From an uncultured archaeon (GTDB lineage: Archaea; Asgardarchaeota; Lokiarchaeia; Sigyniarchaeales; SOKP01), in assembly GCA_964388035.1 (NCBI GenBank), contig CAYLZE010000006.1, positions 48,576-112,575 on the forward strand: a stretch of 64,000 nt of DNA, given 5' to 3'. Of the stretch, positions 3,063-48,941 are shown piece by piece. The notes beneath the pieces are model-generated. The model was not told where the DNA came from. It saw only the letters and a program-made list of their open reading frames with translations, and ran no database searches. Position numbers and translations under genes: made by a program. Position 1 is the stretch's first letter, and each line of letters begins with the position of its first letter.

Positions 3063-3118
3063 AATATTTCCAAGGTTATTTTTAAAAGACGATAATTAAC
3101 GTATAGATTAGTCTACAC

Positions 3119-3415
3119 ATGGAATTATCAAACTTTCAAAAGTTAATTCGGGATCTATATTTTCAAAAAGATAAAAAGAGAGGCATCCAAGGGACTTTTA
3201 TCTGGCTTGTAGAGGAAGTGGGTGAACTTGCACATCTTCTTAAAAATAAGGAATTAGATTTAAATAATATTTCTCAGGAATTAGCAGATATTATTGCATG
3301 GACCGCCTCTATTGCTAATCTATTAAATATCGATCTTCAAAAAGCTTTTGCCGAAAAGTATCCCTTAAAGTGTTCAAAATGTGGTCAAAATCCCTGTAAT
3401 TGTCTTGAACAATAA
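3119..3415 (+). CDS. MazG-like nucleotide pyrophosphohydrolase
   Basis: WLVEEVGELA...ELADIIAW motif, C-terminal CxxC...CxC. Confidence 0.85.
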   Translation: MELSNFQKLIRDLYFQKDKKRGIQGTFIWLVEEVGELAHLLKNKELDLNNISQELADIIAWTASIANLLNIDLQKAFAEKYPLKCSKCGQNPCNCLEQ

Positions 3416-16104: not shown

Positions 16105-16380
16105 TCAAGCTCCTTTTCTTTCAGTTTTCGCTCTTTGAGCTACTTTGCCCGTATGGATAGCGCAACTAATGCATAAATATTTATCGCTACTACCACCCAG
16201 AATAATCGTTCCTTCTTTCTTTAATTCACGATACATTCTGCTATCAATTAAGGACGTCTTGGACGTAAATTTTTTGGCTTTACTTCGACTCACAAATCGC
16301 CCGCAATTAGCACATTGAACTTTTTGGTAATTTCCTTTACTTGAACCGGTATGTCCTCCACTCCTACGTTTCTTAGGCGT
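16105..16380 (-). CDS. rps26e: 30S ribosomal protein S26e (91 aa, ACG start)
   Basis: Extending the tracked ORF upstream gives (M)PKKRRSGGHTGSSKGNYQKVQCANCGRFVSRSKAKK...YLCISCAIH; first codon ACG, 7 nt after GGAGGT. Confidence 0.92.
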   Translation of the reverse strand, partial: TPKKRRSGGHTGSSKGNYQKVQCANCGRFVSRSKAKKFTSKTSLIDSRMYRELKKEGTIILGGSSDKYLCISCAIHTGKVAQRAKTERKGA

Positions 16381-16516
16381 ACGAATAACCTCCTTTTATA
16401 AGAATTAGTATTTTTATTAAGTTCTAGCTTATAATAATTTACTAAAACTTAAATATTTTTGTTTCCTTTCAGTTTTCTAAAAGGTCTAAAAAAGTCTCTC
16501 GATTTTAAGGAATTAA

Positions 16517-27495: not shown

Positions 27496-28062
27496 TCATT
27501 CACTTAAATCTTTGCCGCTTTGATAGGAAATATCGAATACTTTATTCTGTAAATCTACATCGGCAAAAGCACTTTTTATGGTTGTCACTAAATCCGTTCT
27601 AAATTCTTCAAACCCCAACCCCTTAACAGCAGAAATTTCAAAATAATTCATTTTATAGTCCGAAGCTATTTTTATTGCCTCCTCCTTATTTACAACACGT
27701 GGTGTATCATCAATCTTATTTCCTATTAAATAGGTCTTTATTAGATTATCCTGCTTTATCAACGGAATCCATTCCTCAATGTTCAAAAAAGAAGGGAATC
27801 TTAAAACAGAAAATACCAAAATTACAACATGAGCGCTCTCGAAAAAGCATTCTTGGAAAGTTCTGAATTGGTCTTGCCCCCCAAGATCCCAGAGCTGTAT
27901 TCTTATCAAGTCTTCGGCAATTTCAAGGTGATGAAAATCTATTCCGGGGGTCATTTTTCGATCTTCATTTAGTTTTAACGTGCCAGCGAGCGCTTGAGCG
28001 ATGGTAGTTTTCCCGACACCTCCCAATCCACAGAGGACAATTTTGCAGTTCTTATATGGCAT
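27496..28062 (-). CDS. Rab/Ras-like small GTPase
   Basis: G1 GLGGVGKTT, G2 TPGIDF, G3 WDLGGQ, G4 NKID, G5 EISA. Confidence 0.9.
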   Translation of the reverse strand: MPYKNCKIVLCGLGGVGKTTIAQALAGTLKLNEDRKMTPGIDFHHLEIAEDLIRIQLWDLGGQDQFRTFQECFFESAHVVILVFSVLRFPSFLNIEEWIPLIKQDNLIKTYLIGNKIDDTPRVVNKEEAIKIASDYKMNYFEISAVKGLGFEEFRTDLVTTIKSAFADVDLQNKVFDISYQSGKDLSE

Positions 28063-28804: not shown

Positions 28805-29326
28805 ATGCTAGAACAACAGATTAAAACGAAAACATGTAAAATACTATTGGGTGGAGATGGGTTTGTCGGGAAAACTACCATGTGTAAGAGATTAGAAGGA
28901 AATTTAAATTCAAGAAAACCAACTCATTTTACATGCGGGATTGATTTACATCACATGAAAGTCTTGAACGAAGGATTAACATGCGCGACGCTCTATGACC
29001 TGGGAGGGCAAGAGCGCTTTCGGATCTTTCAAAAAACATTTTTTACAAATGCAGAGATCATTATTTTGGTTTTTTCTTTCGATCTTTATATTTCCTTTTC
29101 AAATCTCGATGAATGGCTCTCATTTATTAGCAATTCTAATTCAAAAGAGATTTTCCTTGTAGGAAATAAATTAGATGTTTCAGAGAAATGTATTGAAACA
29201 CGAGTGGCGCAAAAATTTGCAGAGGATCATGGCATGAGATACTTTGAAACCTCTGCTCTAAAAGGCACTAATTTTGAGAGCTTTCGGAAAGCTCTTATTC
29301 AAACAATCATCAAGATTACCGAATAA
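28805..29326 (+). CDS. Rab/Ras-like small GTPase
   Basis: G1 GDGFVGKTT, G2 TCGID, G3 YDLGGQERF, G4 NKLD, G5 ETSA. Confidence 0.9.
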   Translation: MLEQQIKTKTCKILLGGDGFVGKTTMCKRLEGNLNSRKPTHFTCGIDLHHMKVLNEGLTCATLYDLGGQERFRIFQKTFFTNAEIIILVFSFDLYISFSNLDEWLSFISNSNSKEIFLVGNKLDVSEKCIETRVAQKFAEDHGMRYFETSALKGTNFESFRKALIQTIIKITE

Positions 29327-29583
29327 AAATATGAATGCATTAATCTTGCTCCTTCTAGTTTCCTACTTACGAATATCAGAAAATGTACTCCTTTTTGAAT
29401 GAAGCGAACGAATGATTAGAAATTTGTCAATTGGTGAGTGATTTTATGAATTATAAATAAACTTAATAATACTAATACAGAATATATCATCCCAGTTTTC
29501 TCTTTCCTCCCAAAATGGACTAAGAAAAATTTGATGTGAATTGTATCTCTAAATTGGAAAAGAACGAAAAAATAAAAAAATAC

Positions 29584-29895
29584 TTAAGCGCTTCTCTTCT
29601 TTTTTTTGATGTAAACTATTAAATATAGCACGGATATCATTATAACAAGTGTCAAAACCACTCCGAGAATTCCGGCAACATACTCGCTTTGAATCCAACC
29701 TAAAATGGGTTTCCACGGGGAGCTCAACCCTTCCAGCCAAGATTCACCTTTTGAATCAATTACCACTCTCTCCAATCCATCCGGCTCTGAGGAAATGAGT
29801 CCAAGAGGCAAGCCAATGGCAATCATTAACGTTAATACCACAATTGTAACAATAAGCGTGATGATGGGCCACTTATATCTGTTCAATGCACTCAT
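29584..29895 (-). CDS. nikN: PDGLE-domain protein (NikN-type ECF component)
   Basis: SSEPDGLERV motif between two TMs; follows cbiM/nikM. Confidence 0.85.
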   Translation of the reverse strand: MSALNRYKWPIITLIVTIVVLTLMIAIGLPLGLISSEPDGLERVVIDSKGESWLEGLSSPWKPILGWIQSEYVAGILGVVLTLVIMISVLYLIVYIKKKKRSA

Positions 29896-29898
29896 TTA

Positions 29899-30618
29899 TC
29901 ATACCACTCCTACTTGTTTTTCAGTCTTTATTATTTCTGGCTTCACTGGCTTTACTCCCAATTGTTTTTCAGTCATTATCAAATCTGGTTTCGCCTTATA
30001 AATATAAAAGATTATAAGACCGGTAATGATTGCTTCTCCAATTCCAATTAGCATGTGCCAATATACCATGCTTGGAACAGCTACATTCATTGGAATGATG
30101 CCACCTAATCCAATCTCAACCCCACAAGCGAAAGCGGCAAGAACGATAGCAATATAAGATCCGATGGCACTAGCTAGAGTAACCTTTAATGGCTTGCTTA
30201 ATTTCGTCTTATTTAGTCCAACGATAATCAGTTTCACGATATAAAATCCTAAAATCCCACAAATGATCCCCATATTGAAAGTATTCGCCCCTAAGGCAGT
30301 TATACCTCCATCGCCGAATAAACTCTGCACGACTAATACTAAAAATAGGACTATAACGGCTGCCCAGGGTCCTAAAATGATGGCTACCATGGTACCCCCT
30401 ATCAAATGCCCCGAAGTTCCTCCCGGAACGGGATAATTAACAAATTGGAAAGCAAAAACAACTGCAGCTAGTACTCCAATATATGGAACCATTTTTTCGG
30501 AATCTTCTTTTTCAAACATCTTGCCGACTTTATAAAATCCCATTACAAGGACACTTATTGACACGATCCATAATACGATAAGTGTAGCGGGATCTAAAAG
30601 ACCATCTGGTATGTGCGT
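29899..30618 (-). CDS. cbiM: Ni/Co ECF transporter S component CbiM/NikM (239 aa, ACG start)
   Basis: Upstream extension gives (M)HIPDGLLD; GGTSGHLIGG and GDGGITALGAN motifs; ACG lies 6 nt after GGTGA with an in-frame TGA three codons upstream. Confidence 0.92.
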   Translation of the reverse strand, partial: THIPDGLLDPATLIVLWIVSISVLVMGFYKVGKMFEKEDSEKMVPYIGVLAAVVFAFQFVNYPVPGGTSGHLIGGTMVAIILGPWAAVIVLFLVLVVQSLFGDGGITALGANTFNMGIICGILGFYIVKLIIVGLNKTKLSKPLKVTLASAIGSYIAIVLAAFACGVEIGLGGIIPMNVAVPSMVYWHMLIGIGEAIITGLIIFYIYKAKPDLIMTEKQLGVKPVKPEIIKTEKQVGVV

Positions 30619-30668
30619 TTTATATCACCTTCACTACTTTTTAGTTTATTTATCTAAGTTCCCTAATA

Positions 30669-30751
30669 GTAATACTATTTTATTATTTAGTATTAAAAAA
30701 TATAAATTATAAATCTTTAAAGAATATTACTATTTTATAAAATAGTATGAA
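30669..30751. promoter_or_regulatory. Two NikR-type inverted repeats flanking the cbiM/nikM TATA box
   Basis: GTAATAC-N14-GTATTAA (30669-30696) and ATATTAC-N14-GTATGAA (30724-30751, containing the perfect palindrome TACTATTTTATAAAATAGTA); TTTATAA on the minus strand at 30707-30713. Confidence 0.6.
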
Positions 30752-31123
30752 ACCTAAGGTTAATCTTCTATTTAGTGATTATTTTAAAGAAAAAAGCCCA
30801 TTTTATAATTAAAGATAATTAATAACACTATATATTAAATAGGATGAAAAAGTTGGATTTAAAAATGTTATTTTCTCATGCTCCATCTCTCAATTTTAAA
30901 ATCACCAACTTTCTGAATTAAAGATTCGTTATTAAAAATAAAAAGTGAGTTGAAGATTATCGAGAGAATTGAAAAAATTAAGAGTAGGGGTTATTTTTAT
31001 TTTATAATAAATCATTTTTATATACTCCATGGTTTTTCATTCTTTGAAGTGTTCGGTGCAAAACAAACGTGACTATTATACATTTACTTCAATTTTTCAA
31101 ATAGAATTAAAATTATCGTAATA

Positions 31124-47510: not shown

Positions 47511-48941
47511 TTAAGATTGTTTTTCCTTGAGATAATCCAAGTAATTCTTTTCCTTTTCGATATGAATCGCTTGCAATTTATTCTTTTGTTCTTTCCATTC
47601 TGCTCCACCTAAAGGAAAGAACTTGATGGCTATAGCAGCAAGAAGCGAAAAGATCCCTGGAATGAGGGCTATTCCTATCATGATACCCAGCTTAGCAGAA
47701 TAGGATTGTTCCGTACCGGGGACATTAATAAACCCATATGAAGAAATTATGGTCAAGAATAACCAAGGAGCAATGGAAACTGCGGGCTTAGTAATAAGTG
47801 CGCTCACCCCAGAATAACTCGTTTCTCTGCGTTTTCCGGTACGCATCTCATCGTAATCGATGGCATCCGCCAAAACCATCTGGATTGTCATGGTCTGTCC
47901 TGAATATCCGATTCCTAAAAGGACCATGGCAATTATGGCTGTAAAGAAATTCCACCCGATGAAGAAGAAAAGGAAAAAGGCTGCACCCGTAAATATAATC
48001 GTCCAAAAAAATATTGTTTTTAATTCATATTTTCCAAGAAATTTATTGAAAACTATGGTGAAGGCAAATATCATGCCGAAAAAGATAACGAGTGGAACGA
48101 TGGTAAGGACACCGCCAATATCAAGCACGAAATCAAGATAATAAAATACCGCACCCGTCAACGTGTATTGTGCTACGGTTAAGCAGAAAGCCCCTACTTC
48201 AAAAATTAAAAAGGGCTTGTTTTTAAAAGTTTCCTTGATCGAATTCCAGTAACTTAGAGGTTCTTCTAGGTAAGTATATTTATTTTCTTTTATATAATAG
48301 CTTGCAATGAAAATGATCACACCGCAGATAATTCCAAGAATGACCATCGTATTTTGGAATACGGCGATAGGAGGTGCATCTGAACCCGTTAGTAGAACAG
48401 AGGGAAGTAAAAAAGTAAGCAGCGTGCCAAGCCCGGTAAAGATAGAAACAAAAATCATTACTCCGGCCCTTGCTTTTGAGGTAATTGCCATTTCTGCCGG
48501 CATCGAATATGTTATTAACCCCACGATGGTAAAGATAGTATCGAAAGCAAAAAGTATGAATAAAAAATACCAAAATAGCGCGACTTGGTCATTCAAACCG
48601 ACTAAGGGAAACCAGCAGATAATAAATAAGATCACGTAAAATGGCGCTCCAAACCTTATATAAGGAATCCTTCTTCCATACTTCTCTGACTTGGTCCTAT
48701 CTTCTATAAATCCAAAAAGGGGATCATTTAATGCGTTCCACGCGATAAATATTAGCCAAGCAAGCCCCGTATAAAATTCACTTAAACCTAAATGAACATT
48801 ATAATAATATGTTATCGGACCTAATCCCAATCCCGATAAGACCACGTGTGCAAAGTACAAGATACCGTAAGAGAACTTTGATTTCATGGGGATTTTTTCC
48901 TCAATTGAGGTAGAGGATGGCCCTTTTTCAACTATTTTCAT
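47511..48941 (-). CDS. MFS transporter, GPH family
   Basis: WNALNDPLFGFIED, YGRRIPY, DAIDYDEMRTGKRRE. Confidence 0.9.
   Translation of the reverse strand: MKIVEKGPSSTSIEEKIPMKSKFSYGILYFAHVVLSGLGLGPITYYYNVHLGLSEFYTGLAWLIFIAWNALNDPLFGFIEDRTKSEKYGRRIPYIRFGAPFYVILFIICWFPLVGLNDQVALFWYFLFILFAFDTIFTIVGLITYSMPAEMAITSKARAGVMIFVSIFTGLGTLLTFLLPSVLLTGSDAPPIAVFQNTMVILGIICGVIIFIASYYIKENKYTYLEEPLSYWNSIKETFKNKPFLIFEVGAFCLTVAQYTLTGAVFYYLDFVLDIGGVLTIVPLVIFFGMIFAFTIVFNKFLGKYELKTIFFWTIIFTGAAFFLFFFIGWNFFTAIIAMVLLGIGYSGQTMTIQMVLADAIDYDEMRTGKRRETSYSGVSALITKPAVSIAPWLFLTIISSYGFINVPGTEQSYSAKLGIMIGIALIPGIFSLLAAIAIKFFPLGGAEWKEQKNKLQAIHIEKEKNYLDYLKEKQS

Follow-up and report, generated by a model that had tools for sequence, protein, structure and literature searches.

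An ACG codon as the probable start of cbiM in a Lokiarchaeia archaeon, and signs of wider near-cognate initiation in its genome

The closest described relative of the gene discussed here is TtNikM2, a CbiM/NikM-type S component of an energy-coupling factor (ECF) transporter, in which nickel is bound by the free amine of Met1, by the backbone nitrogen and imidazole of His2, and by His67 (PMC3945884). An extra Met, or an Ala inserted before His2, abolishes transport (PMC3945884). The need for an exact Met1-His2 N-terminus, from which the original prediction for this locus had argued, is thus backed by both a structure and insertion data. Because the metal site needs Met1-His2, the site of initiation is fixed to a single codon. 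Here we analyze a cbiM gene in which that codon is ACG. The gene lies on contig CAYLZE010000006.1 of an uncultured archaeon (Lokiarchaeia; Sigyniarchaeales), within a stretch of 64,000 nucleotides (positions 48,576 to 112,575 of the contig) that we call the window; coordinates given without a contig are positions in this window.

In eukaryotes, near-cognate initiation takes place at CUG, GUG, ACG, AUU and other codons, with AAG and AGG the poorest. In Escherichia coli, infC and pcnB, both starting at AUU, are the only two confirmed non-canonical starts, and green fluorescent protein started at ACG carried an N-terminal Met (10.1101/063800). The stringency of start-codon choice across the domains of life has been treated elsewhere (PMC4705826). 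Few Shine-Dalgarno (SD) sequences were noted in Prometheoarchaeum (PMC7531240), and a literature search turned up nothing published on near-cognate starts among the Asgard archaea.

We propose that the ACG of cbiM is probably a genuine near-cognate start that is read as Met. The support is indirect and comes along four lines: the alignment with orthologues, an SD at the modal spacing, a genome-wide excess of near-cognate codons where an orphan SD precedes, and the existence of other ACG-start genes in the genome and of ACG-start cbiM elsewhere. Judged from the genomes, the ACG start is a lineage-wide habit rather than a peculiarity of cbiM, and dozens of genes in this genome very probably start at near-miss codons behind a strong SD. 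As the habit is genome-wide, no logic specific to cbiM, such as the possible tuning of metal uptake raised in the original prediction, is required to account for it.

The start region of cbiM and the N-terminus of its product

The minus-strand sequence is exactly as the original prediction had it: AGGTGA (30630-30625), TATAAA (30624-30619) and ACG (30618-30616), followed by CAC ATA CCA GAT GGT, which encodes HIPDG. The features of the start region are as follows.

29899 to 30618, minus strand: cbiM/nikM, predicted S component belonging to a nickel/cobalt transporter of ECF type; 239 codons plus stop; Pfam PF01891, 7.9e-57
30616 to 30618, minus strand: ACG, the proposed near-cognate initiation codon of cbiM, with its C at 30617; aligned with codon 1 of the orthologues, the next residue being His2 in the NCBIfam and PDB alignments
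30624 to 30630, minus strand: SD sequence AGGTGAT, pairing with the 3' end of the genome's own 16S rRNA
30631 to 30636, minus strand: two further in-frame stops (TAG 30636-30634, TGA 30633-30631), closing the frame upstream

A TGA three codons before the ACG had been taken to exclude any earlier start, and the wider frame bears this out. In-frame stops stand at codons -3 (TGA, 30627-30625), -5 and -6, the first of them being the TGA within the SD motif GGTGA, and there is no ATG, GTG or TTG in the cbiM frame between these upstream stops and the ACG. On the other side, the first canonical in-frame start is a GTG at residue 19, and the public gene call (P0001, 214 aa) begins at an ATG at residue 26. 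From the G1 of GGTGA to the ACG is a distance of 11 nt, with a 6-nt spacer between AGGTGA and ACG. The 16S 3' end of the genome reads ...GGATCACCTCCT (contig C189) and is complementary to AGGTGAT. The modal distance from the G1 of GGTG to the first ATG in this genome is 11-12 nt, which the 11 nt of cbiM fits.

By homology the 239-codon open reading frame (ORF) is a full-length CbiM/NikM. It matches PF01891 with 192.8 bits against a cut-off of 23.1, residues 2-213 falling on profile positions 1-205. The NCBIfam equivalog models for CbiM place residue 2 on model position 2, with scores of up to 189 bits that lie below the strict cut-offs of these models. A phmmer match to TtNikM2 (PDB 4M58, 5e-40) sets residues 2-215 on chain residues 2-218 and residue 2 on His2. 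The equivalents of TtNikM2 His67, Gln94, Gly101/102 (GDGG), Asn109, His190 and Glu198 are identical in this alignment and are kept among orthologues. The N-terminal loop HIPDGLLDP with His2 is present, and as the codon for residue 1 is ACG, Met1 is a prediction.

The genome (5.47 Mb in 211 contigs, 96.7% complete, 7.3% contamination) holds cbiM in single copy, and no NicO transporter was found in it. It carries genes for a NiFe-hydrogenase large subunit and for CdhC, so nickel is needed. Measured against the same-genus orthologue, cbiM has a dN/dS of 0.07-0.12, with dS saturated.

One alternative is that the protein is shorter, starting from the GTG at residue 19 or the ATG at residue 26, and that the ACG belongs to an untranslated leader. 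This is the choice made by gene finders, whose product P0001 has neither His2 nor the N-terminal loop and lacks most of helix 1. However, these are the parts required for metal binding (PMC3945884), no SD precedes either downstream start, and residues 1-18 (HIPDGLLDP... from residue 2) are conserved in sequence and frame across all orthologues. We therefore hold a shorter protein to be very improbable. Because no canonical start exists upstream, and because the starts downstream would delete His2 and helix 1, the ACG is favored as the site of initiation. The consequence for annotation is direct: as P0001 omits His2 and most of helix 1, the CbiM it describes would be judged defective.

Start codons behind Shine-Dalgarno sequences across the genome

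The genome-wide survey covered each NNTGA that is followed, at a distance of 11 nt, by the opening codon of an ORF no shorter than 120 codons, and counted non-canonical codons only where no canonical start lay nearby in any frame. With GG as the dinucleotide, that is behind a true SD, there were 31 canonical, 16 near-cognate and 4 other sense codons. Behind the 13 dinucleotides that do not make an SD, which served as the control, near-cognates numbered 51 against 293 other codons. The enrichment of near-cognates behind the SD is strong (Fisher odds ratio 23, p 9e-10). They comprise six ATT, four ATA, three ACG, two ATC and one CTG, with neither AAG nor AGG among them, and transversions are as common as transitions in this spectrum. 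In other words, about a third of the genes that lie 11 nt behind GGTGA open with ATT, ATA, ATC, ACG or CTG.

The genes so headed are domain-complete. Pfam domains start 1-6 residues past the near-cognate codons, and the next canonical start would cut into them. In an AOR gene (AFOR_N) headed by ATA, for example, that next start is at residue 76; it is at residue 30 in a DHDPS gene headed by ACG and at residue 13 in a response regulator headed by ATC. Annotation clips dozens of further genes of this genome as it does cbiM, and sampling indicates the same for the order. A wider set of SD motifs, adding GGAGG, GAGGT and AGGTG, proved noisier, with GC-rich codons of low total count ranked at the top and ACG still heading three genes, and we kept to the strict GGTGA at 11 nt.

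Two ACG genes besides cbiM can be set against relatives (loci L105 and L107). The first is a DapA-like gene (C1:100943-101884, plus strand) with its ACG 11 nt after GGTGA; the aligned codon is GTG in a genome of the same genus and ATG in one of another genus. The second (C7:12808-13866, minus strand) encodes a membrane protein whose GWT1-like match is weak; it also has its ACG 11 nt after GGTGA, and its ACG-AAC-GAA corresponds to ATG-AAT-GAA in two relatives. A further case is the eS26 gene within the window (16378-16394, minus strand), which reads AGGAGG-TTATTCGT-ACG CCT AAG AAA CGT AGG, or (M)PKKRR, in the arrangement GGAGG-N8-ACG. Here the ACG occupies the position expected for the start, and two codons upstream of it stands an ATT in frame. 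One more ACG candidate (contig C6, plus strand, 10963) lies 45 codons past a stop; it seems spurious and was set aside.

A RuBisCO large-subunit-like gene was noted in the same genome (C112:48-1322, minus strand; L117). Its Pfam N-domain begins at residue 3, and the codon at SD distance is GCG. Directly behind the GGTGA comes an ATT, and a canonical start is next reached at residue 19.

With regard to decoding, the genome has an initiator-like tRNA-Met with a normal CAU anticodon, A1:U72 and GGG/CCC (ARAGORN; the tRNA set is incomplete, with introns). A dedicated decoder of ACG was considered and dropped, ARAGORN returning only two doubtful, intron-containing tRNA-Thr(CGU) calls that lack initiator features. 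We hypothesize that base pairing between the SD AGGUGAU and the 16S rRNA 3' end sets the ACG in the P site, where the ordinary initiator Met-tRNA would tolerate the one mismatch at the middle base of the codon. CbiM would then begin with Met1-His2, as its metal site needs. The yield from ACG is probably below that from AUG.

The ORF for aIF1/SUI1 was also inspected (contig C78, about 3090-3350, plus strand; L139). It contains no ATG, GTG or TTG before the N-terminal Cys-x2-Cys motif; its codon 3 is an ATT that lies behind GGAAGG. The factor that proofreads start codons itself seems to use a near-cognate start, which we regard as a lead on the mechanism and not as evidence for it.

The original prediction had left two routes open, ACG read as initiator Met or C-to-U editing of the transcript. 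The first is supported indirectly by the orthologues, the SD, the enrichment and the recurrence of ACG starts; the second is unnecessary. Editing would convert ACG to AUG in the mRNA, as happens with start codons in plant organelles, and it has in its favor that ACG and CTG are precisely the near-cognates that a C-to-U change makes canonical, and that chloroplasts do this at ndhD and other genes (PMC6302522). However, editing predicts starts at ACG and CTG only, and it cannot explain the ATT, ATA and ATC codons that make up so much of the spectrum given above. We know of no C-to-U editing of mRNA in archaea, and we give this explanation almost no weight. Since ATT, ATA and ATC show the same enrichment behind the SD, near-cognate initiation accounts for every case as a single mechanism.

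Orthologues and ACG-start cbiM in other archaea

We read the start regions of cbiM in 97 genomes belonging to its order, defining codon 1 as the codon directly before the conserved His. Comparison with orthologues in related metagenome-assembled genomes (MAGs) had been suggested as a check of the original prediction, and it places ATG at the very codon in question in 85 of the 97; the remainder are TTG (5), ATT (3, all in one clade), ATA (2) and ACG (2). That the ACG falls exactly where 85 of 97 orthologues have ATG is more than chance. The second ACG belongs to a genome of another family, G028, whose protein is 38% identical, and a search across 154 genomes of the order revealed no ACG-start cbiM beyond these two. 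An SD 4-mer within 4-18 nt precedes all seven starts that are not ATG, GTG or TTG, as against 30 of the 85 ATG starts, and a 5-mer precedes six of the seven as against 10 of the 85. After crude clustering of the upstream regions the 4-mer comparison is 5/5 versus 18/40, which is indicative only, the genomes being related.

We also scanned DNA collections for ACG directly before HIPDG(L/F)L(D/N)P, a pattern for which less than one match is expected by chance (an estimate from the degeneracy of the pattern and an assumed collection size). Four metagenome contigs, with GC contents from 0.31 to 0.65, carry such a cbiM with no in-frame canonical start upstream. Three of these hold whole ORFs of 209-220 codons, and the fourth, which is Loki-like, runs off the end of its contig after 41 codons. 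Two named MAGs match as well, one from Thermoproteota and one from Desulfurococcales. The cbiM of the Thermoproteota MAG (JAOZFN010000007; L141:7855, minus strand) is 92% identical to that of one of the contigs (L138:595, plus strand), and both have ACG before HIPDGFLDP. For this pair, at a GC of 0.64-0.65, dS is 0.17 and dN/dS is 0.21. On this sequence evidence, near-cognate starts of cbiM extend beyond the Asgard archaea.

Several points weigh against ACG as a functional start. The closest relative, from the same genus and 76% identical, has ATG and no SD; the change is therefore limited to the present lineage and may have happened recently. What the low dN/dS of cbiM spans is the whole divergence from that relative, not the time since the T-to-C change. 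In G028 and the two ATA orthologues, an in-frame GTG lies three codons upstream, inside the SD; a start there would add three residues and, going by the NikM data, should be non-functional. The ACG-start cbiM of the Desulfurococcales MAG (L140) stops at 62 codons, and we do not count it as support. The collections hold no second assembly of the species, P0001 forming a singleton cluster whose next match is 79% identical. Finally, AUG, GUG and UUG are the only archaeal start codons given in reviews (PMC7531240), and in E. coli ACG is among 57 codons that initiate at 0.1-1% of the AUG level (10.1101/063800).

One rival reading is a recent start loss: a mutation of ATG to ACG would have left the gene silent or almost silent, a pseudogene too young to have decayed. 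Among the 92 genomes of the family with cbiM, only this one has ACG. Moreover, 43 of 135 family genomes show no cbiM match, some of them being incomplete, and the gene may be dispensable in some of them; elsewhere, the ACG-start cbiM of L140 is truncated. However, the ORF is intact with every functional residue kept, the SD is at the optimal distance, and this is the sole cbiM of a genome that encodes nickel enzymes. Near-cognates are enriched behind such SDs and head domain-complete genes there, so ACG need not silence the gene, and in the Thermoproteota pair ACG has been kept under purifying selection. On balance we consider start loss unlikely.

Alternatively, the ACG could stem from a mistake in the assembly or consensus, or represent a minority allele, with ATG as the true sequence at 30618-30616. 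One T/C difference would suffice in a MAG of 211 contigs with 7.3% contamination, and the species offers no other assembly with which to compare it. An error of this kind would need to have struck the same middle base in at least three other start codons of the genome and to have recurred in independent assemblies of other archaea. Furthermore, ATT, ATA and ATC starts follow the same pattern, and transversions are as frequent among the near-cognates as transitions. Such an error is in our judgment decidedly improbable.

Near-cognate initiation at the ACG thus remains our preferred reading of cbiM. Extending it, we lean toward the view that initiation at ACG, together with AUU, AUA, AUC and CUG, behind an SD is routine in Loki-type Asgard archaea and in some Thermoproteota, a set like that of eukaryotes in lacking AAG and AGG. 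A link to an aIF1 whose own gene lacks a canonical start is possible, and cbiM would be a natural single-codon reporter of the process.

Genomic context and comparison with known systems

The partner genes of the transporter lie on either side of cbiM, in a window with a GC content of 32%.

29584 to 29895, minus strand: CbiN-like partner gene with a PDGLE domain, 103 aa; Pfam PDGLE 1.7e-5, slightly below the cut-off
31124 to 31939, plus strand: cbiQ, ECF T component; Pfam CbiQ 2.2e-24; TIGR02454
31942 to 32682, plus strand: cbiO, ECF ATPase; Pfam ABC_tran 2.1e-32; TIGR04520/TIGR01166

The ATG of the PDGLE gene stands 3 nt past the cbiM stop, and cbiQ and cbiO are transcribed divergently from cbiM. 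All three of the partners by which the ECF family is recognized (CbiN-like, CbiQ and CbiO) are therefore encoded near cbiM. In many relatives (loci of genus g11 such as L004, L036 and L043) CbiM is fused to its CbiN/PDGLE partner in open frames of 330-365 aa, an arrangement that some sources name 'fused nickel transport protein LarMN'; in the present genome the two are the separate genes just described. An Rfam scan of 29000-32000, which covers the cbiM/cbiQ intergenic region, returned no riboswitch or other RNA family at E<=1. In genera g2 and g11, the upstream regions of cbiM genes that begin with ATG contain blocks immediately ahead of the start that are conserved in a genus-specific way (AATCGATAATAAAATAT... 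and AAAAAAAATTAACC..., respectively) and may be promoter or regulator sites. Two genes for small GTPases of the Ras/Roc/Arf type, typical of Asgard genomes, adjoin the transporter locus (27496-28062, minus strand, and 28805-29326, plus strand), and homologues come from MAGs labelled Promethearchaeota or Lokiarchaeota.

What the cbiM locus adds is an N-terminus fixed by structure, two further ACG genes that are backed by orthologues, and ACG-start cbiM in other archaeal lineages. As metal binding by CbiM depends on a free amine at residue 1, immediately preceding His2, nickel or cobalt uptake would read out initiation at exactly this codon. More broadly, tolerance of ACG, AUU and AUA in a lineage near the ancestor of eukaryotes would bear on the evolution of start-codon stringency with machinery of the aIF1/eIF1 type.

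Compared with TtNikM2 and other CbiM/NikM S components (4M58; PMC3945884), the protein described here belongs to the same fold family, has the N-terminal loop x-H-I-P-D/E-G and the equivalents of the metal site, and is encoded next to CbiN-like, CbiQ and CbiO genes. It differs in that codon 1 is ACG instead of ATG, in that cbiQ and cbiO are divergent, and in that the small partner is of the PDGLE type.

As with infC and pcnB of E. coli, the proposed start is a near-cognate codon one base off AUG at a normal distance behind an SD, and here too the initiator tRNA would read it and place Met at the N-terminus. In contrast to these genes, the codon here is ACG, with the mismatch at the middle base, the host is an archaeon with the eukaryote-type factors aIF1, aIF1A and aIF2, and dozens of genes are concerned rather than two. 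The editing of ACG to AUG in plant organelles (ndhD; PMC6302522) resembles our case in having a genomic ACG at a conserved start position, whereas the ATT, ATA and ATC starts that occur alongside it in this genome are beyond the reach of a C-to-U change.

Near-cognate initiation in eukaryotes is like the habit proposed here both in the set of codons tolerated, with ATT, ATA, ATC, ACG and CTG present and AAG and AGG absent, and in the homology of the initiation factors. The difference lies in how the codon would be selected, which in this archaeon is by SD pairing and in eukaryotes by scanning and Kozak context, and in that the archaeal habit is proposed from genome sequences.
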